64,000 nt of DNA from Massalongia carnosa (GCA_965645245.1 OZ287071.1:1674001-1738000), one strand, 5' to 3'. Shown: positions 8,835-33,146, counted from the stretch's first letter. Made by a program: numbers and translations. Notes: generated by a model not told the origin, from the letters alone.

Positions 8835-9311
8835 AATTTCCGTTTCTTGCATCCTCCACTCCAACTCGAAATAACAAATCCCCCGAGAAAAAGAACCCAA
8901 TGAAAGAAGACTTAGTTAGGAACGAAAGCGACGGCTATATGCGAATGGCGTGGCATACTGATCTCCAGAAAACACTCGGCGGCCGCACGAATAGGGGGGG
9001 GTTAGTAGCGAGAGCAGATCCGGTCATTGTGGTGCAGGGAAGCCCCCCTGGGAAAATCTTAACCTTGATCTGTTTAGAAATAAACGGTTCTGTAGCTTGT
9101 CGTGTAAGATAGATCTATGGGTTTTCTTGCAGAAGTTGGGTGCTTTTTGGGTTGGGTTGGGTTGGGTACGAGGTTCGGACCTGTGTGTAATTACGCCTCC
9201 AGAATAGCCCACTCGTAACTAAACGTACAATGCGGAAAACCCCACCACCAATCCTGCCTCTCATATGACAGGACCCGCCTAGCAACTGCGATCCACGCGA
9301 CATATTCCCCC

Positions 9312-14334: not shown

Positions 14335-14996
14335 GAAGCGAAGCCATTGAAAGACGTTATCAGCCCGCTTGTCCGTGGAAAACCCTATAGCGTCATTCGT
14401 GGCTGAGTTTGGTCCAACGAATTGGAAAGAGCAAGTAAACATGGAAAGGAAGAATCTCCTTCGATAAGTCCATTCCCCATTGAAGCAATGGTGTAGTTAC
14501 GTTTATCTGGGAGGGGTTATGGTTATGTAAAGGTCCGCAGTAACCACTGGATTGGTGGTTAGGATAGCTTTCTCTAGGGTTCTCTATATGTTGGGCATCT
14601 TTTATCCATCATCATCATCATCATCATCAACCCATGTCTACTGTTCGTCCTTGGCCGGTGAACATGTAATTTTCAAGGTTATTACAGAGGTTTAGAAGAT
14701 TGGTGCTCGTAGGAAAGCAATGAATACTCTACACTCTCTACATGCAATCAAAATGATTACTTGCCTATATTGATATGCAGACACAGTAATTAGAGAAGAT
14801 ATGTAAAGGGTTTTACGTAAATAGTTAGTTAGGTAGTTAGACTAAAACCCTGCGCGTATTTTGATATCCATAACGAACTCCATGAAGAGTAACGGACTAC
14901 AATCTCAACCTCACTCTGAGTCCAAAGCTCGATTTCACCATTCACTTCGTTGTATGAAACCTTCTCCTCCTGGTGCAACGAAGCGCAATATTTTCA

Positions 14997-17252
14997 ATGC
15001 AGTTTCGTATATTTTCTAGCATCTGTCTTCGATTTGAATCTCAACGTACTCGTGCCAGCACCGTTTTTTCCTTTCGCTCTGCTAATGTGCAGGGTAACTT
15101 GATATCTCGAAGCGCTCATTTGTCTGCTTCGCCCGTGTCTCTCGGTACGCACGATGTTCATATTCGCCCGAATACAACCAACCACGAAGATGCATGTTTT
15201 GCTGGATTAGATGAACGAGATACCCATAGGGAGGTACAAAACGAGACAAGGGACGGGAGTAGCTTGCTACTACCCCGCCCCTTTGAAGGCTATGATCAGG
15301 TTACAGGGGCTGATAAACCGCCGGTGCTAGAACTGCCTTACAACACTCCACTTCCCCAAGAATCAGGCTTGCCGATAACAGATGAGGCGCAGATTATAGA
15401 GAGATCGTTGGACCAGGCCAAAAAAAGGGTTACTGTAGCTTTACGTTCAAGCAGCACCTATGCATTCATACCCTCGCTGTTGCAGGCAGCTAGGGACCCA
15501 ACTTTTTTGCGCGGAATGCGGAAATCCACAATTAGAGAGATGTATATGTTGCTGGATTTTGAAAGGAGCCTTCAAAAATATAAAGAGGTCTATCAGGATA
15601 TTCATCCACATCAACTCGATCAACTTCAGACCTCGAAACAGCCTTCAGTGACTAGCCTTGTCGGGTTTTATTTTTTCCAATATCAACATATTATTGAGCT
15701 ACTCATTGCTGAAGGCCGAAAGTGGGGGATTGTAGAGTTTAAATGGTTACTTAACGCTGCGCGCGTGGCAAGACATGGGGGACGAGCTTTCAAGATTTGG
15801 AAGGATATGCTGAAATGCAACGTAAAGCCGGATACCGACTGTTATAATCATTACTTTGAAGCCTTGTGCTGGTCCAATGCTCATGATCCGGCAGAGAGAA
15901 GAAATCAAAGAGTCACACCATGGAGGTTGGAACGCCGTCGCTGGCGCTTTCCGGCGGAGTCCGAAAAGGATGTGTTATGGCGTTCTTCTTTAGGATATCG
16001 TACGGGGCCATCAGGTTTAAAGGAGGAAGTCGTAAGCAAATTTACCGAGATGGTAGCGGGGGCGGTCATGGCTGATGCGACGACTTTCGGCCACCTTATG
16101 ACTGCCTATGCTAGGGAAGGAGATATGGAAGGAGTTAAAACAATATTGAAGCGGGTGTGGGATATTGACGTGGATGCTGTTATGGAAACCGAGAACAACG
16201 TCGACACTTTCATTGACATTCCTGCTAAGTCACCACTATACCCCAAGGAGGACTTGCTTTTCACAATCGCCCATATTTTTGGGATAAACAACGATTTAGC
16301 GCAAGGAATGAGACTGGTGGATTATATGTCCTCCAAGTTCTCTCTCAAGATCACGAATCAAACATGGGCGGAGTTATTGAGGTGGGCTTTCGTCCTCTCC
16401 CGCCCCCGTAGGGGAAACAGCAAGTTCGATGGTCAACAGATTGGCCAGCTTCCAAGCACAAGTCTGGAGAGCTTATACAAGACCATGACGGCCCCTCCGT
16501 ACAAAGTCAAGCTTAATATGTCCATGCTTGATCTTGTCGTAAAGTATCGTTACGGCCGCAAGCATCTCGACCAGATGTTAAGTATGATGATCGAAGGTTT
16601 GAAACTCCACAATCGTACACTGATTTCCTACGCCCGGGCGAGCGAGAAACATTTCTCTAGTCTCGCCCAAAAAAATTCCGTTCCATGGGTGACCAAATAC
16701 CTTCACACCCAAAGCCCCTTGTTTCATAGGAAAAACGTGGCGGGTTTACAAGAGTTCCGAGATTTCCTTTTGATCTCTCGATGGTTTTCCAAACTACTCC
16801 GTCAGAGCGACTGGTACAGCGCTAAACAGACAATTGTTATTTGGGAGCGCCAAAAACTTCCTGAAGCCATAAACGCTTTTTGGTACTTTAGACCCAAGGA
16901 TCGCCTCTCCTATAGTATCTCCACGGGGAGGGTGGATATATTCTGTGGATCGAAGGCAGGGTACGATGAGTCTCTTCATGAGTATATGCCAAAGAGAAAT
17001 TTTGTCCATTTCCCAAGCCATGTCTTCAAAACAAACGGCGTTTCAACAAGGAGGGCCCTGCGACGTAGACTGAGTGTTAAAGAACGAGCATTAATGCAGA
17101 TCTCATTTGCATCACTCTTGAGACCATGGAGATATCGTATAAAACAGTTGCCCAGGAAGAAGCAGCTAGTACAATCGGAGGAAGTACGTCGGAGAATGCC
17201 TAGACGCTCTAGCCGGCATGCTCATCTAAGTCAATTCAGAAGGAACGCTTAA
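14997..17252 (+). CDS. AEP2: Mitochondrial ATPase expression protein 2 (ATP13 domain, PPR-like)
   Basis: PPR-like VKPDTDCYNHY and DATTFGHLMTAYAREGD; ATP13-type segment SPLYPKEDLLFTIAHIFGINND..TWAELLRWAFV. The first in-frame ATG is at 14997. Confidence 0.8.
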   Translation: MQFRIFSSICLRFESQRTRASTVFSFRSANVQGNLISRSAHLSASPVSLGTHDVHIRPNTTNHEDACFAGLDERDTHREVQNETRDGSSLLLPRPFEGYDQVTGADKPPVLELPYNTPLPQESGLPITDEAQIIERSLDQAKKRVTVALRSSSTYAFIPSLLQAARDPTFLRGMRKSTIREMYMLLDFERSLQKYKEVYQDIHPHQLDQLQTSKQPSVTSLVGFYFFQYQHIIELLIAEGRKWGIVEFKWLLNAARVARHGGRAFKIWKDMLKCNVKPDTDCYNHYFEALCWSNAHDPAERRNQRVTPWRLERRRWRFPAESEKDVLWRSSLGYRTGPSGLKEEVVSKFTEMVAGAVMADATTFGHLMTAYAREGDMEGVKTILKRVWDIDVDAVMETENNVDTFIDIPAKSPLYPKEDLLFTIAHIFGINNDLAQGMRLVDYMSSKFSLKITNQTWAELLRWAFVLSRPRRGNSKFDGQQIGQLPSTSLESLYKTMTAPPYKVKLNMSMLDLVVKYRYGRKHLDQMLSMMIEGLKLHNRTLISYARASEKHFSSLAQKNSVPWVTKYLHTQSPLFHRKNVAGLQEFRDFLLISRWFSKLLRQSDWYSAKQTIVIWERQKLPEAINAFWYFRPKDRLSYSISTGRVDIFCGSKAGYDESLHEYMPKRNFVHFPSHVFKTNGVSTRRALRRRLSVKERALMQISFASLLRPWRYRIKQLPRKKQLVQSEEVRRRMPRRSSRHAHLSQFRRNA

Positions 17253-18319
17253 CTAGACAGGTACGACTCAGACTCAAGAAAAAAGCAATAATATGGAGAG
17301 ATAATGGAGCGTCCTTCCATCGACAAACGCTCGAACAACCAAGAGGGTCCGAATACTCTGCACTGCGTGTTTTTTTGAATCAATTCAGAAGACAAGCTCT
17401 TTTTGCCAAGAATGGCTCAAGATATGAGAGCATTGGAGAAACAACGATATACGAGGATCTGTATTTACATCTAGCCAAAACTCGAGCACCGGCGCCAGGT
17501 AGGACGAATGCGACGTATTCCTCCTATCAGGCGTGTTCTAGGACGCAGGAGTGACATAGCAGTTAGAACATCAAAAAGAATAGATTTCCTTCGCCCGCTG
17601 TTCCAAGAGCACCTTGAAAGGAGCCAAATCGTGCAACGCATTCTTCTTGGCGGAAATGCCCAAACCCCCACAAGCAAATGAAGAACGAGCTAAACAATCG
17701 GGTGGTTTCGGGCAAGAGAAGGCCATCAAGCCTAAAACATCGCAACAGCCAATGTCCCGATTCCTGGCCGGAACACGCCAGCTCGGTGAAATATCTCCTT
17801 GCCGTACACACAGGTCTCCTCCCGCTGGTATTCGTGTTGCAGCCTCACAGACGCAGACTACCTCGAGAGATGTCCACCGCTGACGTTCTGGTTTGGTCAT
17901 TCACGGAAACGGGACGTGACGCAGCGGAAAAGAAAGGGGAGGGTGCGCTTCAGTTCGTCGATGTATGTATTAGTATTATCCTCTTCGCAGACTGGGGGGG
18001 GGGGGGTTTCGAGAAGGTGCCCTACAAACCTGAAAACTGTGGTTTGGATTGGGGGTGGACCGTACCGTACGTAACCGGGTATGGGTTTACCTTGTACAGT
18101 GAGCGCGGCGTTATAGGTAGACCTCATATGTTTACATTCATTACCAAACACTTACTTCATTCGCTGAAACCCCCTAAAAGTACGCAACCCAGAATCTGTT
18201 AAACCTAGCAACAGGCCCTTTCCCCCTCATTCCACCATCTCTAAACCCCCCCAAAGCAACCTCGCCCCTTTTTCCCCCTTTTCCATCCCCTTCCCCAGAA
18301 GCAAAAGACCGAAAGCCCT

Positions 18320-19508
18320 TCAATATGTAGCACTCAACCGCTCCACCAGGTAGTCCCCGCTATTCACCCCCTCCCATTTCTTATCGCCCATCTCTCCTCC
18401 AAACGTCCCCGGCAGCGCCTCGATCCACCGGTCGAAATCCGGATTGCCGAAATAAGCCACCGAGTACCGCGGCGGAAGGAGCTCATCATCATCGTTATCC
18501 TCTTCCTCCTCCTGACGCCCCTCCACACTCTCCCCCTTCCCTTTCTCCTGACCTCTAGAACCCCCCCTGGGCGGCTCCACAACCCGATGCATGGTACTCT
18601 TCACGAGTCCGTTACTCCACCTCGCCAATAAATCCCCACTATTCACCACCACCGCGCCCTCGACAGGCTTGACACCGACCCACCCGCCGTCCGGCCGCTC
18701 AACCTGCAGCCCTCCCGCCGCGTCCTGGAACAGCAACGTCACGCTGCCGAAATCGCTATGGGCCCCCGCGCGCACGCGGCCGTGGCGGAAGTGCCCCCGC
18801 CGCACCCCCGGATAGTGCAGCAGCCGCAGCGTGTTGTCGCTGCGGCGCAGGTAGGGCTCGAAGAAGGTGTCGCTGAGCCCGAGCCCGATCGCGACGCCTT
18901 TCATCACTGCGCGGTGCAGTTCCTGGCAGCGAGCGAAGAATTCAATCATCGTAGTTCGGAACTCGGAGTCGAAGGCTTTCCCCTCCGCCTCCGGTCCTCC
19001 ATCACCCTGGCTGAAGTCGGGCCAATGGTTGTCTCCCCCCTCCTCATCCCCTTCGCGCCCGATTTCGAAACTCTCCTTTACGTCTTCGCCCTCCCCCTCG
19101 CGATCGGCAGCAACAGCTTCCTTAGTGGTGCCATTGCTGACTTTTTCGCGTCCAAGCCGCACGTAGCCGCGGTTAGACTGGGGCGTTTTCCATGCCAGGC
19201 TGTCTTTCTCGGCCTGGGGGAGGGCGAAGAAGGCGGCAGAGAGGGCGAAGACGCGGGGGAGGAGGGACGAGGGGAGGGGCGGCTGAGTGAGGTAGAGGAA
19301 GCCGGAGGTGCGGAGAGCCGAGAGGATCGCATGGGCCGTGGGGAGTGTTTCGGGGACGGGGGTAGGGTGGAGGAGAGGGGTGATGGGAATTAGCTGGAGG
19401 TGGGGTTAGTATTTGGTGGAGGGTTGTGAGGGGAGGGGTGAGGGGGAGGCTTACTGGGATGGAGGCAGCCGGGGCTTTCGGAAAGGGGGATGTTATGGAT
19501 GGAGACAT
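18320..19508 (-). CDS. Thymine-7-hydroxylase / thymine dioxygenase (2OG-Fe(II) oxygenase), about 375 aa, intron 19394-19454
   Basis: HSD..H..RYS iron/2OG motifs. The motifs WKTPQSNRGY..GREKVS, DVKESFEIGRE, DNTLRLLHYP, LARWSN..KSTMHRVVEPP and GVNSGDYLVERLSATY match the Neurospora T7H sequence as I recall it. Confidence 0.85.
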
Positions 19509-19716
19509 TGTGACGGAGCTGAGATACCTTTCCACCAGCGAGGACACAGCGTCAACAGACTCTTGACCGATTATCGGGATTGAATGAATGATTGGTCAAT
19601 GAATTGAGGGGATTCCGTTTAACTGACTAACTTAATCAGATAGAGAGCTGATTTATCTTATCTTATCTTATCTACCTTCTCTTGACTGCAGTCGTTCAGC
19701 GTCCATGTACGAAGTA

Positions 19717-19805
19717 ATCGTCGGCTCGCTTAGTGGGATCCGACTCGGAGGCCGTTAGGACTCCTAACGGCCTCCGAGTCGGATCCCACTAAGCGAGCCG
19801 ACGAT
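19717..19805. mobile_element. 89-bp palindromic MITE derived from the pogo/Fot1 element at 27479-30059
   Basis: Perfect 44-bp inverted arms with a 1-nt loop, TA on both sides (19715-16, 19806-07). The terminal 39 bp (ATCGTCGGCTCGCTTAGTGGGATCCGACTCGGAGGCCGT) are identical to the TIR ends of the large element. Confidence 0.95.
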
Positions 19806-20234
19806 TAAATGTTTATACGGACTCTGAGTCTCCCACCAGACCCTGGTCGCTCATTCTCTGTCGCTTTCAGCCTGGGCCCTATGAGTAAAGCACTCAAAAC
19901 GTGAGGCGTAAATTTCAACTTCCTCTTCCACTCAGTCCCACGCCATTCTTTACCAGTGCCTATTGCTTGACCCTTGAGACTTGAGGAGAAAGGCCTCTTT
20001 ATGTCAAACTCTCTTCACTGTTAGCAGTTTGTAGATTAAAAACACCCCACGCGGTCGGCGAGTTCAACAGGGCTCCGCCTCAGTACTGACTGGTCAGCTC
20101 ATTGCGTATGTTCAGTGGTGGAATTTTTACTTACCTTCAGTTCTTACCGTGGCTCTGAAACTCTGCCTGGCGTTCTTCACATTTCTCGAGTTTCACGTGA
20201 AGTTGGAGGAACTTCCTTGTGAAAGTCTGTGGCG

Positions 20235-23200
20235 ATGGCATATAACCGCCTAGGTACATTCCCCATCGATTCAACCCCTTGATTTGAACCCCCGCATGGT
20301 GCATATGGATGGCCATATCAGAAGACCCTATCAGAAGACCCTTATCCAGGACCACCCCGCTAACAATATCTCCTGAATAAAGGTAGTCCTAGTGTTCATC
20401 CAGACGAAGAAGATTACCACTCCATCCTACCTCCAATGAATCCTCCACGTAACGGGGGTTCCCCAGCCCACCCACTCGCCGGATACCAGTTGGAAGATGG
20501 GCCTTACAGACCGCAACAAGGCCCATTACAGATTCCAATGGGTCCGGCTGGAGCAGGCGATCGACTAGCAGCGCAACCTACATATTCTGTCGAAAACATA
20601 GACAGTTCCCACCATCATAATCAAGAGTATGAGGCCCATCATCCGGCGGTGGGACCGGACTACAATTATCGGGATCGTGATTATACGCTGTCTCCGGAAG
20701 AACACCACGATGCGTATTACACACAACCTTATGACCCAACTCCCCAAGATGAACATAGTTTAAGCGAATACCCTTCGCATGAACAGCAAGAATACTTTGA
20801 TGAGAATGATGAACAACCAATTCTTCAGCCCCACAACGCTTTTGGCCCCAACCCTCGATTGCAGCCAGATATTGAAGACCGGTACGATGGGCCACGACCA
20901 GAAATAACTCCGAGCCCTGCGCCGATAAGGCGTTGGAAAACTGTCAAAGAAGTTCAGCTGTTCAATGGAAACCTCGTGCTTGATTGCCCAATACCTCCCA
21001 AACTGTTAAACCAGGTTCCTCATGCAGAGCCACCGGAGCGTGACGAGTTTACTCATATGCGTTATTCCGCCGCAACCTGCGATCCTTCGGAGTTTTACGA
21101 CCAGCGCTTTACGCTTCGGCAGCGCCTATTCGCGAAGCCACGACATACGGAGCTTTTCATCGTGGTTACGATGTACAATGAAGATGATTTTCTCTTTGCG
21201 AGAACAATGGGTGGTGTCTTTAAGAACGTAGAGCACATGTGCTCTAGGACCAGTAGTAAGACTTGGGGTAAAGAAGCTTGGAAAAAAATTGTTGTCTGTA
21301 TTGTTAGCGATGGACGTGCCAAGATAAATCCACGGACAAGGGCGGTATTGGCTGGTCTGGGGGTTTACCAAGACGGTATTGCCAAACAACAGATGAGCGG
21401 AAAAGATGTGACTGCACATATTTACGAATATACGACACAGGTGGGGTTGGAGATCAAGGGAAAGGTTGTGAGTTTGAAAAAGGGAGCGACCCCGGTACAG
21501 TTGATCTTTTGTCTCAAGGAAAAGAACCAGAAGAAAATCAACTCCCACCGATGGTTTTTCCAAGCCTTTGGACGAGTCTTGGACCCTAACATTTGCGTAC
21601 TCCTTGACGCAGGGACGAAACCTAGAAAAGACTCTATTTACCATTTGTGGAAGGCATTTGATCTTGAACCCATGTGTGCCGGTGCATGTGGAGAAATCAA
21701 AGTCATGACGAGCGGTGGCAAAAAGCTCCTTAATCCCTTGGTCGCTACGCAAAATTTTGAGTACAAGATGAGCAACATTCTCGATAAACCGCTGGAGTCT
21801 GCGTTCGGTTTCATCACCGTACTGCCCGGAGCATTCTCCGCTTATCGTTTATTGCATTGCAAAATGACAAGAGTGGCAACGGACCCCTGGAAAAATACTT
21901 TGCCGGAGAGAAGATGCATGGTGCCAATGCAGGCATTTTCACAGCTAATATGTATTTGGCGGAAGATCGAATCCTATGCTTCGAGCTTGTGTCGAAAAGC
22001 AACTGTCGATGGGTTCTGCAATACGTCAAATCCTCCACAGGTGAAACGGACGTGCCAGATACTATGGCGGAGTTCATCATGCAGCGAAGACGATGGTTAA
22101 ACGGTAGTTTCTTCGCCGCTGTCTATGCTCTGGCTCATTTCTATCAAATTAATCGAACGGATCATAGTTTCCTGAGGAAGTTGATGTTCATGGTGGAGTT
22201 TGTATATCAAACCATTAACATGCTCTTCGCTTGGTTTGCCATTGTAAGTGTATGTAGCTTATTATATTCAAGGAAACTTATACGGCGTAGGGAAATTTCT
22301 TCCTGGTCTTCCGCATTCTCACCACTTCGCTGGGTGCCGACAATCTTCTAGGGACGGCAGGAAGGGCTCTAGGGGTTATCTTTGAGCGGCTTTACCTGGC
22401 CACATTACTGACATGCTTCGTCCTAGCCATGGGGAATCGACCTCAGGGGTCTAACAATTTCTACATGACAATGGTTTACTTCTGGGTCGGCATCATGGTG
22501 TACTTGATCTTTGCATCCATCTTCATCACTGTGAAGTCGATACAGATAGAAACGGCGGACCATCATTTCGCCATCTCGGATCTGTTTCATAACCAGCTTT
22601 TTTTCACCCTGATCGTATCTCTTACATCGACTTATGTCCTATGGTTTGTCGTCTCGTTTTTGTTTTTCGATCCATGGCATTTGTTTACCTCCGTAAGTCC
22701 TATATCTCCCAACATCATCGGTCAGAAGCCAACCTTAATGTTTCATGGCAGTTTATTCAATACCTTCTTCTCACACCAACATACATCAACATCCTCAATG
22801 TCTACGCATTCTGTAACACCCACGATATCACCTGGGGTACTAGAGGCGATGACAAAGCCCCCAAACTCGAAAGCGCCAACCTTAAGCCCGGTGGCAAAGT
22901 TGACATCCAGCTACCTACCGATGACGGCGACCTTAACGCGCAGTACGAAACGGAAATGCGCATGATTGCGGAGAAGGCGCCCAAGGAGGTCAAAGTCATC
23001 ACGCCAGCCGAGAAGCAAGAAGACTACTATAAGGGCTTCCGTAGCGCCGTCGTGCTGGCATGGATGTTTATGAATTTCGCTCTGGCAGCCGTGGTGCTGA
23101 GTACCGCTGGCTTGGAGCGCGTCGAGATAGGGAAGAATAGCGATACGCAGAGAAGTACGATTTACATGGCAGTCGTACTGTGGAGCGTGGCCGCGTTGTC

Positions 23201-23356
23201 GGCGTTTCGGTTTTGTGGTGCGACCTGGTTTTTGGTGGTGCGGATGGTAAGTCGTTACTTTTCATCTTCAGCGTTGTAGCCCCAGTCTTCTTGCTTTTCA
23301 GAATCTGTTCATTCGCTAACCAGCTTTGGGTGGCACTATAGTTCCGTGGCGTCTAG
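20235..23356 (+). CDS. Chitin synthase, class I (A. nidulans ChsC type), multi-exon; apparent 1-nt frameshift near 21850
   Basis: Exon 1 MAYNRL (20235-20253); [70 protein letters not shown]; last exon FRGV*. Confidence 0.95.
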
Positions 23357-26010
23357 CGTACCCAGCTTTTGGATTTGGCGTAAATGGATTCTGGGCATCT
23401 GGCGAATCCCTAAGAAAAGGTGTTTATCTATCAGACTGTCTGTCTGTCGCATGTTAAATATGTTGGCCAACCATACATACCCCTTTCCTCTTCCTCCTGT
23501 AGACATGATGGGGCGTCGTGGCGATCTACACGGATCATCTCTTGTTTTTTTATTGTCTGGGCCTTTAACGTTGGGTATGGAAACAAATGCTGTCTCTTTC
23601 CCAACCCATCGGGAAACACTTATTCACAGTTAGCATATGTAGAGGAATCCTACGTATCTGTCGTGTTGCCTCGATCAGTTAGGCAACACCTACCTATATG
23701 AAAGAGATGTTTTTGAGCGATTGAGATGCTTTAAAGTTAGGAGAATCGCAAGGGCTATGACGGAGTAAGATGTTCAGGAATGGAGGGGGTTGGTGAAGAC
23801 GGGATGGGCATGAGATGCAAGTGGTTAAAAATGGTAAATAAAGGAAGGAAATGCAGCAAGGAATCTATGCAGAAACCTTGACTTCATATCTCTTGAGCTC
23901 ATTCACTCGAACGCACAAACGGACTGATTGGGAGATCTGAAAAGAAATACACTGGGAGATATTTGCGAGAGTCGAAAGGCATACCATCTGATTAGTAGCA
24001 AACGGAGTTTAATCACTCTTCCGGACCACTTACTCATCAAGGCTTGGGCCTCATCCAATAGCTGTCTAAGTAGCATGTTCGTTCAAAAAATTAACTTGTA
24101 CGTCAAGGAATAAATTGTCGACTAGCCAATGATTCGAAACATTTCCAGTATAGAGAAATGAATCATAAAGTCTAACCACGAAATCAATGGTTTAACAGTG
24201 AACTTGAGGCAGACCGTGCCAGTCAAGTTTCTCAACAACAACCGCATAGGCAAAGAACGGAGACGCACATCTCTCTCTTTGCGGGCCGTCTTTTCGAAAA
24301 TGCTGGTCGGAATACAGAGTATATGTATCGGAACAAGCTGGCGTTGTCATCAAACAATGACATTTCCGAAGGCTACTATAGGATCTATCAAAGTCTCTTT
24401 AAACAGTTTGTAACTTTCCAGGCTTCATAGATAAGATTAGTAGTCAATACATCGACCTGTTTCCCTTGTATTCATACCTTCAACGTTGCGTTTTGCCCTG
24501 TTCGACACTTCTAGCCTTTCTCGTCTTTTGCTTAGTATAGCAGTGTTTCAGCATTTGCGTAAGTGTACGGATTGTTTCTCATAGACGGGCCTTATCGTCG
24601 TAACCCAATCTGATCGAAGACCCTAAACCGTGTCAAATGAGAGGAAATTACTTTTATGCTGCTGGAGCAGAACACTGCTTTGGTAATTCATACTAGGTAC
24701 CTTGTTTTTGATGCTCGAAATTTGACCTCTCTAGGAAACCAACATCCATTGGACTGCGGGAAAAGATACGAAACTGCATTGATAGAGAGATATTAAAAGA
24801 CTGTATGTGAGGGTGGCAAACTGACGGTAGGTAATGCTGCAATAACATATCAAGATCCGAGAACCTAGCGATAGAGAATGGAGAGGCGCAACATCAACTT
24901 CTTGCATACTGCTGTCTGCTGCTGGTTGCACGGCATGCTTGTGAATCCTATAGGTTAGTAATCTCGCCAAAGATGTCTTGTCCTCGTCACTTGTCAAGAA
25001 GTGGCTGGGCTTACATTTGGGCACGTTGGAGTGGGACGAAAGGCTGATGGTTAGCAAAGGGTGATAATCTGGGGCTCAAGGGTACAGGCTGATTCTCATC
25101 ATGTACTCTGCGCAACATATTCCAAGGCTTATGTGCAGCTTTGTTATATTGCTACAAAACCTAACGAATACTTCGTACAAAATACTTATGTGGCGATACC
25201 TAGCCGTTAAGTCTCAGGCTTAGGAGCAGCCAGGCCGCCATTAAATAGCTAGATCAGACAATAATGATAGTCAACGATCTCCCTTCCCCACATGCATTGT
25301 GTTGGAGCATGGGCAGATGCAAGAAATCAGGACTATTCATCGCATGAAGAAATGGGTGAAGGCTCGGAGTAAATACCTCGTACAGAGCAGAGAAAGAACG
25401 CTTGAAGCCCGGAGAATCACGTAATGAGGCAAAGCGACTAACGCGTTTCAATCTATATCCGTCGCCGCGCAACTACCCACACCAACAATCATCTCACTGA
25501 ACGTTCAGAGCAATTGCTATCAGACCATGCGGACATAAGGCTGGGCTGTGCTGTGCATTGCGGCAGTGTGAGGAGGCTGCCCTTTAACTTTTAAAATCCT
25601 AAAGCGAATGATTGGTATGCTTACGCAGCTCCTCCAAGGGATTTTGCGGACGGTTGTTACCATTGCTACTCACACTGTCCTGACGAATAGGTGTCTCGTT
25701 TTCCTTGTTGTTACGGATATGCGAACAAGCAAATCATCTAGTGCTATTCTTGTTGCTTGGCCGCTGTGGTGAAGTCAGCGTGGCAGGATGGGCTGGGATT
25801 TGGAGATAGGGTATCATTTGCTTCGCTGTATAAAGGCGTCGTTTCTATCCTCCTTCTTTCGAACCCTTCAGTCAATCCGTTCATGCACATTTTCCACCAG
25901 CCAACCTTCCTCTTCTCTACATAATCTTCCAGACCCAGAAACTCCTTTCTTAAGACTCTCCCATTTATATCAAGTAATCATCACTCAATAAAAATCCAAC
26001 ATCACCCACC

Positions 26011-26531
26011 ATGCATACCAAAAGCTTCCTCTGTGCCGCGCTGGTCTCGACAATCTCCCTCGTCGCCGCCAGTTCCACCACCACCACCACCACCAGCGCC
26101 CCCACCTCAGATCAGGTAAGACCCCTCCCCCCTCCCCCCAAACCATCCTACCCTTCCGTATTGGTCTACCCCACTGACCCTCCCTCCCCCTTTAGACCAA
26201 AAAGGCCATCAGCGAACTCAACTCGTTCTACTCTAAAGTCGCCACCGAGTCCAAATTCTCTTCGTACGGCGCCATCCTCTCCAGCGCCATTTCGTCCGGT
26301 GTCGTCCTGAACCCTGTCGACGGGAGCAAAATCGCCCAAGCCAGCCTTACCGCGCTCCCAGGCTTCACCGCGCTGCCCAGCGATGCCCAGAGCTACTACT
26401 CCAGCATCTACAAGGCCGAGCAGAGCATCATCAGCAAGGACTTGAGCGGGGCCGCGCCTAAGCCCACGGGGGTCATGGTCGCGGCGGGCGCGGCGGCGGC
26501 GGGCATTTTGGGAGTCGCGGCTATGCTATGA
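26011..26531 (+). CDS. Small secreted, probably GPI-anchored Ser/Thr/Ala-rich cell-wall protein (2 exons)
   Basis: Signal peptide MHTKSFLCAALVSTISLVAA; intron about 26116-26195; C-terminus SGAAPKPTGVMVAAGAAAAGILGVAAML looks like a GPI signal; TATAAA upstream at about 25829. Confidence 0.8.
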
Positions 26532-26749
26532 GATTGATGCGCTGGATAACGGGGGGGGGTTGAAGGTAGGAGGTAAATAGCGATGAGCGTGGATGATTAT
26601 TTCTCTGCATTGCGTGACAGAGCCGGCGTTTTAATGTCACTCGTTGAATTAAGATCATTTTTCCTAGTTGATGTGCTATTATTATGGTAGCATGTGTGGA
26701 ATTCACTTCCTGTTTCTTATCGCATGCTATCTTTTTTTCTTGATAGCTC

Positions 26750-27410
26750 TTGCCGGAGCCGACTGCAATTACGTTTCTCCGCAACGAGACGGATTATCCT
26801 GAGAAAAGTCAAAATCACATGTACCCATACACATCTGTTCATTGTGAATATTGTAAACATGTGCTCCCCACACGACGAACAAGTTACAAACGGCGATTTC
26901 TCCTGTTCATCACTCTAAGGATCTTTCATACCAGTTGGTTTTTACTTCCTCGCAGTTTTCTTTATCTTCACCTACATCTGAAGGTAACATAGCCTCTACT
27001 AATTTCCTTGCGTGTTAAAATGGCTTGCTAATCTTCTACCTCGCTGTCAGATTAACTTTGGCGGCAAGGACTATCTCTTTTCGGCCAGGACTGAGGACCT
27101 AGAGGTATTAGACGAATCCGACTCCAGCGAAAACGAGGACAAAAATGCATGGTTGAGGGAACTGGCCACTCACAAGCAGGAGTACTTTCCATGCTTGAGT
27201 GCCGTAGATGTCGCCTGCCTCTCGAACTGTCGGGAGCGATTCCAAAGTATGGTAGTTTGGGATGATCCGGTTGAGCTTCCAGGGGAGCTGACTGAAACTT
27301 TCACCGCTGCTAATATCAACCTCAGCGCTTTGAGGCGACGCAGGCTGCGACTGGCAGATCCGAAGGGTGACGAACGCGATCAGTACCGATGCAATATGTT
27401 TTGTTTTTAG
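26750..27410 (+). CDS. Orphan spliced ORF or gene fragment; 5' end unclear
   Basis: Canonical intron 26984-27050 (GTAAC..GCTAAT..CAG) joins ORF 26750-26983 in frame to INFGGKDYLF..27410. No recognisable family and no clear ATG. Confidence 0.35.
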
Positions 27411-27746
27411 TCTAGGAGAACTGGGTTTCTAATTAAATAGTAACTGTAATAAAAGCATGTATATCGTTGTACTTTGTAATCGTCGGCTCGCTTAGTGGGA
27501 TCCGACTCGGAGGCCGTCGCCTCCTAGTCGGGGAAAGCGATTTGCATCCATTCAAACTGAAATTTTGACCATTTTTCACCTTTTACCCTCAACCACATTG
27601 ATCAATCATTACTTAATATCGTAAAAAGCTTGAAAGCATCGTCGTCGTCATCGTTGTCATCAAAATTATCCCCCCCCCTCAATTTCCGATCCTTTATTAT
27701 CGCATTTGCAACTTTCGAAAAGACGTTTTCAACCTCCCTTCGTACC

Positions 27747-29926
27747 ATGGAAAATAATGCCTCAATCTTGGTTTCCACTCTCAGCCCCATGGAAAGATTG
27801 GAAGAAGCGAAGCAATTTCTGATTGATCATCCCGAAGAAAGCAAGGCTGCTGCGTCAAAAATCTACAATGTCAACGTTAAAACGTTGACGTCTTTTGTTC
27901 GTCGTCATCCGAAGAAGGACAGAAAAAAGAAGGGAAAAAAAGGGGGGAGAAAATCAGATACTGAAAGAGCATGAAGCTAGGGCTTTAGATGGATTCATTA
28001 AATCCTTATTGATACATGGAATTCCACCTACGCATCACATGGCTTTTAATGCAATTGTAAGTCTGAGAAAGGCTCATAAATTAAAAGCTCCATCAAGACG
28101 ATGGTTTCGGTCTTGGTGGAAACGTAGCAATTTACACAAGATTAAGACCAAACCATTACCAATGATTCGCTTTGAAGCCGCTGAAGAATCAGATGTGATC
28201 AAATGGTTTGATGGCTACAAAGAGGTATTGAGAGAATTGAAAATCAGAAGAAGACGAAACATTCTAAACTTTGATGAAGCTGGTTTTCGAATTGGATGCA
28301 TGAAGGGTCAGGAAATCTACGTTCCTATGGAAATCAAGCAATTCTACGCCGTCAGCCCGGAGAATCGCAGATCTGCGACGGTCATTGAGACGATCAATGC
28401 TGCTGGCGACTATCCCCCTCCCCCCATGATCATCATACAGGGTCAGGAAATCATGGCGACGTGGTTTTCGGAGGATTTGCCGGTGGGCACGCGTATTGTG
28501 CCTTCCGACAGTGGTTTCACATCTGATAAGATAGCAATTGAATATTTGAAGCATCTCATTCAAAATTCGGATGCAGGACCTAATGCAGATTGGAAATTGC
28601 TCCTGATGGATAATCATGGCAGTCACGTTACTCCTGAATTTGTACTTCTGGCCAATGAAAATCACATTCGTCCCTACCCACTAAATTCCACATTTGACTC
28701 ATTGCATGCAGCCATTGGATGTCGGCGTATTTCAGCCCTATAAACACTGGCATCAACAGGCTATTGAGGAGAATGTTGCATCGTCATTTGTCGAGTATTC
28801 CCTGACTCGGTTTCTTCAGGATTTGATCAAAATTAGAAACCAGACATTCAAAGCTTCTACAATCCGACATGCATTTGAAAATTCGGGAATGTGGCCGGTC
28901 AATCCAGAAGCATGCATTCGTCAGCTGAAACAATTCATTCTCGACAATTCTAGTCTGAACAATTCTGATCTGACTGATCAGCCCTCACTTCCTCTACCTC
29001 GTCAAATTCAACCTAGGGATATAGTCGACATAGAACATGGATTGCGTCAATGGGGGTCAAAAATTCAAGAATCTATGCAATGGAGTGATCCCGCCCGAGC
29101 AGGGGAATTTGATTCTTTTATAGCTGGTACGAAAGAGATCATTTCGAAGTCTATACTCGGAGAAGCGGAGCTTGAAATGTATCAGCAGCAAAGAACGAAT
29201 CAGCTAAACAGCAGACGAATATCTCGTAAAAGATTGAGACCTGAAATCGGAAGATTGGGAATAACCGCTGAAGATGCGAAGCAAGCTATAGCCATGAAGC
29301 TACAAAAAGATCAGGAAATTGAGAAGAAGAAGGAGAATAATAACTTCATGAAGTTGTGGAGAACGGAAAGAGACGAAATTCATGTCAAAGGGGTGACTGC
29401 TCGAAAAGCAGAAAGGGATCGAGTCAAACGACTAAAAGAGATGCAGAAAGGGCTCGGTGCCATCTCAGTTGAGATGTATGAGGAGATTCCTGACCCCGAG
29501 GCATTATGGAAAGCGACGAATGAGGTGTGGATAGCTGAGGAAGCGAAAAAAGAAGCCAGAAAGAATCCATCTGCATCTGCTCGTGCCAATGTTGAAGAAG
29601 ACGTCACATTTATTGTAGATGAGACTGAAGCTAGAAATGGAGGCATTTCGAACATTTCGAACATTTCGAACATTTCGAACATTTCGAACATTTCGAACAT
29701 TCCAGAAGAAGAAGCATGGCTACGAGATGATTTTGTGTCTTTCGATCCAAGTTTCGAATCGGGAGATGCTTCGAATTATGAGGGGGATGCGGGGTATGCG
29801 GGGTATCAGGAAGATCAGAATAATCAGGGTGGTCAGGGTGGTCAAGGGGGTCAGGGGGGTCAGAGGGATGATTTTAATGACGGCTTTGATGATGACGATG
29901 CCTTTCGAGCTTTGTATGAAATTTAG
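27747..29926 (+). CDS. DDE_1 transposase (HTH + DD35D), about 725 aa if two +1 homopolymer insertions (about 27940 and 28684) are corrected
   Basis: N-terminal HTH (AAASKIYNVNVKTLTSF); PSRRWFRSWW; catalytic NFDEAG, LLMDNHGSH and MQPLDVGVF with 35 residues between D2 and D3; no in-frame stops once the frame is corrected. Confidence 0.92.
29644..29701 (+). repeat. 9-bp tandem repeat (CATTTCGAA)x6+ encoding (ISN)n in the transposase tail
   Basis: Read directly from the sequence; GQG-encoding 9-bp repeats follow at about 29828-29863. Confidence 0.95.
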
Positions 29927-30121
29927 AATCAATAAATCAATGTGGTTGAGGGTAAAAGGTGAAAAATGGTCAAAATTTCAGTTTGAATGGATGCAAATCG
30001 CTTTCCCCGACTAGGAGGCGACGGCCTCCGAGTCGGATCCCACTAAGCGAGCCGACGATTACTCTGTACGGAGTACTCTATACATAGTAGATGCCACCCA
30101 GAGAAGCTTTCAACGTCAAAC

Positions 30122-31225
30122 ATGGCCCCGCCAATCATCGATATCCACACGCACATATATCCCCCATCCTACCTCTCCCTGCTTCGCGCCCGCACAGCAG
30201 TACCTTATCTCCTCGACCTTCCAGCTCCAGCTCCTCCACGGCTGATCATCCTTCCCTCCGATGACAATGCCTCTCTTCCGCAGTCCTCTCGCGGCCGGCC
30301 AATTGGTCCCGAATATTCCTCCGTAGAACAGAAGCTCGCTTTCATGTCAACCCATCATATCTCACTCTCGGTCATCTCGCTTGCAAATCCCTGGTTGGAT
30401 TTCCTACCTGCCCGAGAAGCCCTCATCGCCGCAACGATGATCAATAATGAGCTAGAGGAGATTTGCATGGCGAGCAACGGGAAACTGTTTGCATTCGCAA
30501 CATTGCCAGTCTCAGCTCCGACAGAGGAGGTTGTTGGAGAGATTCAACGCCTGTCGTCGCTCCATCATGTCCGAGGTATCATACTTGGCACTACCGGTCT
30601 TGGCGCTGGACTAGACGATCCAACTCTCGAACCTATCTGGGACGCGCTAGCAAAATCGCAATTTCTTATCTTCCTCCATCCGCATTATGGCTTGCCGTCT
30701 GAAGTGTTTGGGCCTCGAGCGCAGGACTATGGTCATGTTCTGCCGCTGAGTCTTGGATTTCCGATGGAAACGACAATCGCGTTTGTGCGGATGTGGCTTT
30801 CAGGCGTCTTTGACCGACATCAGGAGCTACGAGTACTGATCGCCCATGCTGGAGGCACGGTACCTTTTCTTGCTGGAAGAGTGGAAAGCTGTGTAGAGCA
30901 CGAAAGGCATTTCCGAGACGAGCAAAACAGGCAAAAGGAGAGACGAGGAATCTGGCACGTATTGAAGCAAAATATCTGGCTGGATGCGGTAACCTATTCG
31001 AAACTAGGGGTCAAGGCGGCTGCGGAAGCGGTGGGAGTTGACAGGGTGCTGTTTGGAACGGACCATCCGTTCTTTCCGCCGCTGGATGCGGGCGCTGAAG
31101 AGTGGATTAGTGTGAAGACTAATGTCAATGCGGTTGAAAGCGCATTGAACGAAGATCAGAAAGGGATCAAATCCGTACTCGGAGGAAATGCTATCACTTT
31201 GCTCAACCTTGAGAGTTCGCGATGA
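30122..31225 (+). CDS. Uracil-5-carboxylate (isoorotate) decarboxylase, amidohydrolase_2 family
   Basis: DIHTHIYPPSY (HxH), PRLIIL..GRP, SVISLANPWLDF, FLHPHYGL, LGFPMETT, AHAGGTVPFLAGR and FGTDHPFFPP match fungal IDCase as I recall it. Confidence 0.88.
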   Translation: MAPPIIDIHTHIYPPSYLSLLRARTAVPYLLDLPAPAPPRLIILPSDDNASLPQSSRGRPIGPEYSSVEQKLAFMSTHHISLSVISLANPWLDFLPAREALIAATMINNELEEICMASNGKLFAFATLPVSAPTEEVVGEIQRLSSLHHVRGIILGTTGLGAGLDDPTLEPIWDALAKSQFLIFLHPHYGLPSEVFGPRAQDYGHVLPLSLGFPMETTIAFVRMWLSGVFDRHQELRVLIAHAGGTVPFLAGRVESCVEHERHFRDEQNRQKERRGIWHVLKQNIWLDAVTYSKLGVKAAAEAVGVDRVLFGTDHPFFPPLDAGAEEWISVKTNVNAVESALNEDQKGIKSVLGGNAITLLNLESSR

Positions 31226-31847
31226 ACGGGGGTCCCGATTGGATTAGTAACGAGAGGAGTTCCCATCCGATAGATGATCCGATTAAATCGGCTTAGGGCT
31301 TCTCTAGCCCACTAGGCGGATTGAAGTTAGCGGTCTTCATCACGTGGCGCACTGAACGGAGTTGACGGAAATGCAAAGAGAGGCCGGAAAGAACTGCAGT
31401 TCAGGATCTAGCGTACATGTGAAGTGACATAAGAGAAACTCCAGATTATGAACATGACGAACAATCTCGTTTCTACATCATTCCTTGACTAAATAACGCG
31501 ACGAATGGGGACCGTGGAAAGAGCCAGGCCGAGGATGGAAGTGTTAGGTGGTCGGAATCATGATCGTGACCGTGAAAGAAAAAAAAAACAGTGACAACGC
31601 TAACTAGATGACAAGCAGACATATAAAGAGCAATGCATTATGGGATTGATCGGCCACTAACTCTCCCTCCATCATTGAACATCTCTCCCTTCAAGTTGGG
31701 AATATCACGGATTTTTCAATATCTTTACATCTTCATGATTATTAATGTAATAGTCTTCGGACAATTCCATCTAAAGCCAAAAGTCTCAACCTAACGATAA
31801 CCTCAGAAGAGAAGAGGGAAAAATTACTAACAACGGTCATCCACGTC

Positions 31848-33146
31848 ATGATGGAAAAACTATTTTCTTCGTACAAACAGAAGAGACGGAGCATGACCAT
31901 CAGTGGCCGCTCATTATTCCCAGGCAACAAAAACAGTTCTTCACAGCACACCCCAAAACATGGCCCCAAAACTCCCCCTGTAGCTCCAGCCAAACTGGCC
32001 ATTGACTATGAATCCCCACCTCTAGTCTTTCACGGCTCGCTCACAAGATCTACGGGTGCCATCCTCTCCGGCCAGCTCGAACTCATCGTGCTGGAAGCTC
32101 AAGCCAAGATAACCGCCTTTAAGATGGTCCTGGTGGGGAAAGTCCTTACGAAGAAACCCGTGGCCAAAGATTGCCCCGACTGTACGAGTATAACGACAGT
32201 CCTTCAAAAATGGATATTTCTCAACGAGCCTGTTCGCTTCAAGCAGGGCAAATATTCCTTTCCCTTTTCCTACCTCCTCCCAGGCCACCTCCCCGCCACC
32301 TCCAACAGCGCACTTGGCAGCATTGAATACGAGCTTCAAGCACATGCCATACTCAACCTTGATGAACCTATCCACTTCTCTCGCATTCTCACCGTTCAGC
32401 GCGCGACGCACCCCGGCATCGACAGATCCACAACCCGCGTGTTTCCCCCCACCAACATCGTTACCACCGCCACCATCCCTACCACCATTCATTCCATTGG
32501 CGAATTTTCCGTGTACCTCCGCCTCTCCGGGCTCGTGACCAAGAACCTTACCGAGCCCACCCATACCCGTCTGCGCGTCCGCAAAATCCTTTGGCGTATT
32601 GAGGAGCTCGCCCGCATCGTGTCACCCGCCTGCCCCAAGCACGAAGCTAAACTCGTCACCTCAGCCATCGGCATTCCCCATCACGGAAGAGGCATTCTAC
32701 ACGAATCCAAGCGCAAGCTGGCCGAACAAAGCTTCAAGCGCGGCTGGAAATCCAGTCCGGACTCCGACACGACTGAGTTTGAAACCTCCATCGCCATCGA
32801 CCTGTCCACGCGCCCGGTGTGTGATGTGCACTCGCCCACGGGCTTCGTGGTGGACCATAGACTCGTCCTAGAGATTATTGTCGCAGAGGAATTGCTGACG
32901 GGGTCGCGCGGGCAGCATGCGAACTACACGGGTCTGGCGCGCGTGCTGCGTATGACTTTCCCCGTCGTGCTAACAGAGCGGGGGGGTCTAGGGGTGAGTT
33001 GGGATGAGGAGCAGCCGCCGGTGTATCAGGATGTGCCGGGTAGCCCACCCGGCTATGCGCGGATCGAGGAGTATGTGGGAGACCCGATTCCATATGAGGA
33101 GTTGGAAGCGATAGAAGGGGCAGATGGAGGTTTTAGCGAGGGCTGA
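31848..33146 (+). CDS. Arrestin-related trafficking adaptor, LDB19/ART1 family
   Basis: YESPPLVFHG..STGAILSGQL, FPFSYLLPGHLPAT, RVFPPT, ARVLRMTF..ERGGLGVSWDEEQPPVY, and PY motifs PPVY and PPGY. Confidence 0.88.
   Translation: MMEKLFSSYKQKRRSMTISGRSLFPGNKNSSSQHTPKHGPKTPPVAPAKLAIDYESPPLVFHGSLTRSTGAILSGQLELIVLEAQAKITAFKMVLVGKVLTKKPVAKDCPDCTSITTVLQKWIFLNEPVRFKQGKYSFPFSYLLPGHLPATSNSALGSIEYELQAHAILNLDEPIHFSRILTVQRATHPGIDRSTTRVFPPTNIVTTATIPTTIHSIGEFSVYLRLSGLVTKNLTEPTHTRLRVRKILWRIEELARIVSPACPKHEAKLVTSAIGIPHHGRGILHESKRKLAEQSFKRGWKSSPDSDTTEFETSIAIDLSTRPVCDVHSPTGFVVDHRLVLEIIVAEELLTGSRGQHANYTGLARVLRMTFPVVLTERGGLGVSWDEEQPPVYQDVPGSPPGYARIEEYVGDPIPYEELEAIEGADGGFSEG

Follow-up and report, generated by a model that had tools for sequence, protein, structure and literature searches.

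A 64,000-nucleotide (nt) stretch of the genome of the lichen-forming ascomycete Massalongia carnosa (GCA_965645245.1 OZ287071.1:1674001-1738000, hereafter the window, from whose first letter all positions are counted) contains the divergently oriented genes T7H and IDCase, which code for two consecutive enzymes of pyrimidine salvage. We found that the intergenic region between them is interrupted by a composite unit of 10,343 bp (19717-30059), which begins with a miniature inverted-repeat transposable element (MITE), ends with a pogo/Fot1-type transposon, and carries between the two a block of host DNA that includes a chitin synthase (CHS) copy. The reading that best fits the unit is a macrotransposition, in which the outer ends of two separate elements would have been used as one pair of transposon ends; judging from the sequences compared here, this is probably how the block came to its present place. 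A first-pass annotation, made from the window's sequence alone, had already proposed that a MITE and a pogo element moved host genes as one unit, and the comparisons presented below support this proposal, with a donor allele that we infer.

The two outer ends of the unit (19717-19755 and 30021-30059) are exact inverted copies of the same 39 nt and come from two separate elements, each of which also keeps its own inner end. This 39-nt terminus is present in exactly four copies in the 64-kb window, all of them at element ends, against none expected from 100 shuffles. The whole unit is flanked by TA (19715-16 and 30060-61), and each element has in addition a TA pair of its own (19715-16 and 19806-07 for the MITE, 27477-78 and 30060-61 for the pogo copy). 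The inverted outer ends abutting TA had been described in the first-pass annotation, together with what follows from removing the unit plus one TA, and both descriptions hold: the T7H-IDCase spacer, now divided into 208 bp and 60 bp, is restored to 268 bp, and a tandem repeat with a 14-nt unit appears across the restored junction. The insertion target (19707-19716 with 30060-30069) is a near-palindrome around the TA, matching at 14 of 18 positions, and lies within a short tandem repeat. The motif TACGRAGTA is indeed recurrent here, as had been noted earlier, with five copies in the 64-kb window against 0.5 expected, and TGTACnnnGTA is common to the left flanks of the MITE and of the pogo copy. 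A target preference for TACGRAGTA or GTACTCTG was considered as the origin of the junction repeat, a question made moot by the empty site described below; the flanks of other pogo-family copies (loose ends at 19808-19809 in the public runs X1 and X2, see below) show neither the TACGRAGTA/GTACTCTG motif nor a near-palindromic target.

Table 1. Features of the T7H-IDCase region and of the composite unit inserted in it (window positions).
Feature	Position	Strand	Evidence or remark
T7H	18323..19508	-	ATG at 19508, points left; tblastn, 2OG-FeII_Oxy, 5c3p
T7H-side spacer, 208 bp	19509..19716		19715-19716 = left copy of the duplicated target TA
MITE, 89-bp palindrome	19717..19805		left end = left outer end of the unit
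Host cargo, 7,673 bp	19806..27478	+	TA at start and end; a second, element-free locus exists
CHS copy, division-1 (class I/II-type)	20397..23249	+	four homology blocks; 1-nt deletion
Candidate small secreted Ser/Thr/Pro-rich protein	26011..26531	+	two open reading frames in different frames; assigned by eye
Orphan open reading frame, 132 aa	27012..27410	+	no Pfam family
pogo/Fot1-type copy, 2,581 bp	27479..30059	+	terminal inverted repeats 27479-27636 and 29902-30059; right outer end of the unit
Right target TA (30060-61) and IDCase-side spacer, 60 bp	30060..30121		sequence; X1 joint
IDCase, single 367-aa open reading frame	30122..31225	+	best PDB match 4hjw

Five public runs contain the stretch, and four of them (X1, X2, X4 and X5) were compared with the window over 17500-32500, as Logan contigs rather than raw reads. 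X1 is a lichen metagenome from a different study from that of X2 and X4. One of its contigs (13,982 bp, depth 26) reads from 17500 to 19714 and then from 30060 to 32500 without interruption (record positions 8870/8869). Between these two parts 10,345 nt of the window are missing; no letter is added at the joint, and 2 nt there can be assigned to either part. As 10,345 nt is the length of the 10,343-bp unit plus one TA, X1 carries an exact empty site, which is the empty junction that the first-pass annotation had predicted. Compared with the window, the two flanks show 8 differences in 2.2 kb and 9 in 2.4 kb, indicating that the X1 fungus belongs to the same or a very close species. The cargo (19803-27478) is found on another X1 contig, of 17,464 bp and depth 27, which extends beyond it, by 5.76 kb on the left and 3.98 kb on the right, with sequence that does not resemble the window. 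No MITE sequence is present in the 30 letters that precede 19803 in that contig, and each border of the cargo has a TA and neither of the elements. A TA at both borders is as expected if each element had duplicated its own TA at the donor. In the X1 fungus, therefore, the cargo is present once, at another locus and free of elements, and the T7H-IDCase spacer is uninterrupted.

X2 and X4 carry the species label of the window; X2 is possibly the sample from which the window was assembled, and X4 comes from the same study as X2. Both outer junctions are present in each (records 7 and 14 of X2, records 15 and 21 of X4), the T7H flank running into the MITE terminus (to 19742 in X2 and 19740 in X4) and the pogo terminus (from 30036) running into the IDCase flank, and the empty T7H-IDCase joint was not found among the joints listed for these two runs. 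Depth over the cargo is 245.6 in X2, versus 127.8 and 122.6 over the flanks, and 1523-1756 in X4, versus 698-909, with several cargo single-nucleotide polymorphisms at about half depth in the latter. As in X1, the cargo passes into unlike sequence in two X2 records (8 and 10), here at 19805 and at 27461. The doubled depth and these element-free exits together indicate two cargo copies, that of the window and one at another locus without the elements. Clusters of open reading frames (ORFs) locate the second one: members of the 90% cluster of the orphan ORF lie on contigs of 2,812,471 bp (the window's own), 2,849,552 bp (ENA) and 17,464 bp (Logan, the same size as X1 record 2); a protein clustering with a 178-aa ORF from the CHS region comes from the 2,849,552-bp contig and shows both other-locus substitutions (positions 22458 and 22781); and that contig contributes no member to the T7H cluster. 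The second cargo copy thus lies on a different large contig of 2,849,552 bp, and the second CHS copy for which a search had been suggested is found there, in keeping with the roughly twofold depth in X2 and X4. An exact 40-nt stretch of the cargo had no match in JGI metagenome contigs.

The other-locus copies in X2 and in X5, a run with a different species label and a depth of 0-14 over the stretch, stop at 27461 and lack the 17 nt (27462-27478) to the left of the pogo TA. This 17-nt stretch is bounded by TGTA on both sides and is retained in X1, and its absence may be an excision footprint or an unrelated slippage deletion.

Concerning the two host genes, domain and structural matches agree with the identities assigned in the first-pass annotation. 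For T7H, tblastn with the proteins of relatives covers aa 18-349 at 19399..18323, the product has a 2OG-FeII_Oxy domain, and its best solved relative is the Neurospora thymine dioxygenase 5c3p (E 2.6e-68). The best solved relatives of IDCase are uracil-5-carboxylate (iso-orotate) decarboxylases (4hjw, E 4e-124; 4hk5, E 2.9e-121), and for both genes the next families score far lower than these best PDB matches. Both read intact in the window. The closest named proteins to those of the window come from Peltigerales lichen fungi, with 78% identity for the IDCase of Sticta canariensis and 74% for that of Peltigera leucophlebia.

The two genes have consecutive locus tags in Peltigera leucophlebia (MMC31_003788/003789), Sticta canariensis (MMC29_003905/003906), Letharia columbiana (HO173_010248/010249) and Puttea exsequens (MMC21_002820/002819). 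Among the 120 + 120 matches listed, 26 T7H/IDCase pairs, these four named species included, lie on contigs of identical size, from which their placement on the same contig is deduced; eight of the 26 come from contigs 3,262-9,109 bp long, too short to accommodate a 7.7-kb block between the genes. Conversely, no T7H or IDCase homologue at E<=1e-10 was found at any of the 80 metagenome loci with the closest CHS relatives (63-83% identity; 30 of them with a full 10 kb on either side). The adjacency of T7H and IDCase in relatives and their absence from the CHS loci indicate that the insertion between them is the derived state. This agrees with the synteny that had been suggested as a check, the two genes adjoining in four named Lecanoromycetes and the CHS block lying elsewhere, and the opposite order that had been raised, T7H-CHS-GPI (glycosylphosphatidylinositol) gene-IDCase, was not found in relatives, at none of the 80 CHS loci. 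Together with the X1 contig, the adjacency in relatives supports the earlier suggestion that the T7H and IDCase flanks were once contiguous.

The MITE is 89 bp long and non-coding, with arms (19715-19760 and 19762-19807) that are 100% complementary, a layout of 39 nt + 11 nt + 39 nt, and terminal 39 nt identical to the pogo ends. Indirect hints that it may be multi-copy are a raised depth in the bin 19504-20004 that contains it, an X4 contig whose MITE centre differs by 2 nt, and several further flanks at 19808, which are equally attributable to pogo copies. The pogo copy has terminal inverted repeats (TIRs) of about 158 nt that are 92% complementary, a TA duplication, and a predicted transposase with DDE_1 (PF03184), features that place it in the pogo/Fot1 group. 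The DDE_1 match falls in two frames (profile positions 4-103, E 1.1e-07, and 108-177, E 0.017), and a further match to HTH_psq is weak (E 0.022, below the cut-off).

In the transposase frame (27747-29926), the first stop comes after 75 codons from the ATG at 27747. Relative to the window copy, contigs of the same family have an additional A after 27911, another after 27934, and one letter less at 28683; once these three 1-nt differences are applied, 726 codons are open. Family-interior contigs stand at 16-35 times single-copy depth in X1 and X2. The family is thus abundant and, judged from these reading frames, probably has functional members, and the copy in the unit is, on the same grounds, a frameshifted and non-autonomous one, so that the transposase for the unit would have come in trans. 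The autonomous element of the first-pass annotation is accordingly of the type proposed (DDE_1, TIRs, TA), and it is not intact. Within the C-terminal region of the transposase, the 9-bp unit CATTTCGAA is repeated about six times (29635-29706); an X1 family contig lacks 27 nt, corresponding to three CATTTCGAA units, and the number of repeats is therefore polymorphic among copies.

The chitin synthase identity proposed for the first cargo gene stands, with both Chitin_synth_1N and Chitin_synth_1 domains and tblastn coverage of aa 12-934 of a 938-aa homologue in four blocks; the copy is, however, frameshifted. Among named proteins, the nearest ones bear either of two labels, 'class 1' or 'class 2 / chitin synthase 2', and the class I membership given in the first-pass annotation is a candidate assignment. 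One nt is missing at about 21848-21851, from the codon that follows the conserved ...SAYR motif, which shifts the frame before AEDRIL, and all 65 related loci with an alignment spanning the site (65/65) have one more base there. Moreover, six replacements (V>M, G>R, K>N, R>S, I>V and W>R, at 21393, 21624, 22000, 22013, 22387 and 22458) affect residues conserved in 7-8 of 8 distant homologues, and the other-locus copies keep the conserved residue. The deletion and the replacements suggest that the moved copy is probably a redundant, decaying duplicate, that is, an early-stage pseudogene.

The deletion itself is likely private to the window copy. X2 contigs break at 21826/21848, and the 554-aa frameshifted ORF forms clusters without proteins from the 2,849,552-bp or 17,464-bp contigs, whereas neighbouring ORFs do cluster with them. 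Against this, X4 and X5 contigs cross the site ungapped, possibly as mosaics of two copies; no X1 indel is seen among the rows listed there (12 of 25), with two X1 gap letters unaccounted for; and no near-identical longer CHS protein is present among the matches listed. Repeat-induced point mutation was considered as the source of the private G>A/C>T changes of the window copy and is not supported, their contexts being mixed (nine transitions: three CpA, two CpG, two CpC and two CpT). The long ORF has its first ATG at 20436, downstream of the start of CHS homology at 20397, and the first ~11 codons are therefore probably in a separate 5' exon.

The other proposed cargo genes are less clear. 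The ORFs assigned to a GPI-type wall protein and to an orphan are present, as the first-pass annotation had it, and neither has a Pfam family; the wall role is an assignment by eye. In the candidate wall protein an intron is presumed, as its two ORFs are in different frames, and its C-terminus is hydrophobic. No homologue of the wall-protein exon or of the orphan ORF was found by tblastn at E<=1 in the 80 related CHS loci, tblastx of 23250-27478 against the related CHS loci gave nothing at 1e-6, and tblastx of the whole window gave, outside CHS, short spurious matches only. A 2.7-kb stretch of the cargo (23280-25978) has no ORF above ~115 codons and no detectable homology in the 80 related CHS loci; within it, 30 letters are added at 24971 in X1, and 9 nt are missing at 25654 from X4 and X5.

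We propose the following scenario for the origin of the unit. The two elements would first have inserted on either side of the cargo at another locus, the 89-bp MITE into a TA some 0.6 kb upstream of a chitin synthase gene and the pogo/Fot1-type element, a member of the same family, into a TA lying 7.7 kb beyond. A transposase supplied in trans, from one of the tens of other family copies, would then have paired the outer terminus of the MITE with the far terminus of the pogo element, which share 39 identical nt in inverted orientation, and everything between these outer termini would have been excised as a single unit. The unit would have integrated at the TA in the near-palindromic site of the 268-bp T7H-IDCase promoter, duplicating that TA, and the genome would have been left with two cargo copies, of which the moved CHS copy was redundant and free to decay. 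Two routes might lead to the element-free copy at the other locus. The donor may have lost the unit by cut-and-paste, followed by an outcross to a strain with an unmodified locus; segregation of an insertional translocation yields duplication progeny. Alternatively, the donor may have been repaired from the sister chromatid and both elements excised afterwards, a route on which the 17-nt gap at 27462-27478 may bear. The matched ends, the TA duplication, the empty site, the second cargo locus, the two copies and the ancestral adjacency of T7H and IDCase are observed here and support this scenario. We infer, in addition, a donor allele with both elements, the action of the transposase, and the way in which an element-free copy came to coexist with the unit.

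Several observations weigh against a macrotransposition. The pogo copy of the unit cannot supply transposase itself, and the action of a transposase on the 39-nt end is deduced solely from the existence of the MITE, whose multi-copy state has indirect support. The donor allele, with MITE, cargo and pogo copy in a row at the other locus, was not found among the rows listed for the four runs, and in X2 the copy at the other locus lacks the MITE at 19805 as well as the pogo copy at 27461; this element-free state calls for an extra step, either an outcross or two excisions. The inner junctions (MITE-cargo and cargo-pogo) are drawn from the window assembly, no listed contig bridging them. As to the runs, their evidence consists of Logan contigs, X2 may be the window's own sample, and X4 belongs to the same study as X2. 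Finally, homologous recombination through the elements would produce the same final structure.

This last possibility deserves to be considered in detail. A lone pogo element or MITE might have resided at the T7H-IDCase TA, and a break in it might have been repaired from an ectopic MITE-cargo-pogo locus, with 39-46 nt of terminus homology serving at one end and the 2.6-kb body of the pogo element at the other, so that the cargo was copied in. Such a repair would give an identical end structure, outer TA duplication included, and would find potential partners in the tens of pogo-family copies; being duplicative by nature, it also fits the two cargo copies. We nevertheless consider it unlikely, because it adds an event, an earlier insertion at precisely the T7H-IDCase TA, where no lone-element allele is present among the rows listed for the four runs, and because it relies on only ~40-46 nt of homology on the left side. 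Furthermore, it requires the same unobserved donor as a macrotransposition and would leave that donor unchanged, whereas the other-locus borders in X2 are element-free.

The first-pass annotation had also kept the possibility that the MITE and the pogo copy inserted independently, into an ancestral order T7H-CHS-wall gene-IDCase. Each element does have TA on both sides, and TGTACnnnGTA is common to both left flanks, which speaks for two separate insertions. However, X1 joins T7H and IDCase exactly at the outer ends of the unit with one TA and has the cargo elsewhere at equal depth, T7H and IDCase are adjacent in the four named relatives and very probably in many others, and neither gene accompanies CHS at any of the 80 related loci; the exact empty site in X1 excludes this explanation for practical purposes. 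An assembly artefact, in which the window contig would have been mis-joined twice at shared termini and only a simple element would sit between T7H and IDCase, is very improbable. The termini are repeated many times in the genome and the listed short-read contigs do not bridge the inner junctions, but the artefact would take two precise mis-joins, repeats of 89 bp and 2.6 kb are short for the reads that such an assembly needs, and the 2.81-Mb contig of the window matches X2 with no difference over 4.7 kb of flanks. In addition, the window cargo has private variants, so the assembler kept the copies apart, and the twofold depth requires a second cargo copy with non-native flanks. On balance, we favour macrotransposition through the outer ends of the two elements.

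The kind of mechanism involved, a macrotransposon or composite transposon, is already known, and the present case differs in its combination of features. In maize, Ac/Ds (hAT) macrotransposons are units of 10.3 and 28 kb that enclose host DNA between termini belonging to separate elements; they excise and reinsert with a target-site duplication, and can rise in copy number (Huang & Dooner 2008 and Wang et al. 2022, as cited in PMC9910405). They resemble the unit reported here in that the termini of two separate elements bound host DNA as a unit; here, unlike in maize, the family is pogo/Fot1 (Tc1/mariner) with TA duplication, the host is a lichen-forming ascomycete, one end is an 89-bp MITE, and a natural polymorphism is deduced from genomes instead of being followed genetically. 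Among bacteria, Tn630-NC1 is a composite of the IS630/Tc1 family, and IS630 composites are given as unreported before 2024 in its description (PMC11544213). Composites such as Tn5, Tn10 and Tn630-NC1 are alike with our case in that two copies of one family bracket a cargo and the outer ends are used, and Tn630-NC1 also belongs to the same IS630/Tc1/mariner superfamily; they consist, however, of two full insertion sequences, one of which encodes the transposase, in contrast to a MITE and a frameshifted copy in a eukaryotic host.

The nearest fungal analogue is ToxhAT, a 14.3-kb TIR-bounded transposon of wheat pathogens that carries ToxA and is described as a composite of at least two transposons (PMC6737239). 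Both are fungal class II elements of similar size, with TIRs and host-type genes. ToxhAT differs in being hAT-associated, in having a single pair of 74-bp TIRs and a nested element, and in moving between species, and an empty site together with a native cargo locus is not reported for its origin, whereas here two members of the pogo family act as bounds, and an empty target and an element-free cargo locus are seen. Open-access literature on macrotransposons gave plant, insect and fish cases and no fungal one among the matches listed, and that on composite transposons in ascomycetes likewise no fungal case; in both instances subscription papers could differ. In Fusarium, the short non-coding mimp shares the termini of its transposase-encoding partner impala, and is moved in trans to TA targets. 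There, each element moves alone, whereas here the ends of the MITE and of its partner were apparently used together across 7.7 kb. What distinguishes the present case is the combination of the pogo/Fot1 family, a MITE as one end, the lichen-forming ascomycete host, and the three states in wild material.

Good documentation that cut-and-paste transposons move host genes exists for bacterial composites and maize Ac/Ds, and hardly any for fungi or for Tc1/mariner/pogo elements. The locus described here offers an unusually complete natural record, with the empty site, the other cargo locus, the filled site, the TA duplication and a duplicate that appears to be in early decay, and it would show concretely how genes can be relocated and duplicated in lichen-forming fungi. 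It is tempting to go further and to suppose that pogo/Fot1-type transposases can treat the end of a MITE and that of a distant full-length element as a single substrate, and so move and duplicate host genes over at least 10 kb in fungi; that the unit is naturally segregating and may still be mobilisable; and that the element-free copy was joined to it by an outcross, so that one transposition led to a duplication by segregation. We advance this larger picture tentatively, as possible but doubtful. If true, it would make the locus the first case in the eukaryotic Tc1/mariner superfamily in which wild material shows the target both empty and filled as well as the cargo locus without elements. 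The 39-nt MITE end and the pogo end constitute a testable transposition substrate, and the splitting by 10.3 kb of a conserved divergent promoter, shared by two consecutive enzymes of pyrimidine salvage, amounts to a natural experiment.

Next to T7H, an X5 contig at a depth of ~8 joins 17500 and 18420 on opposite strands, which hints at a small inversion or a contig artefact. The genes that neighbour the locus in the window are ordinary: a mitochondrial expression factor of the pentatricopeptide repeat (PPR)/ATP13 type on the T7H side (14973-17252), and an LDB19/arrestin-N protein on the IDCase side (31848-33146).

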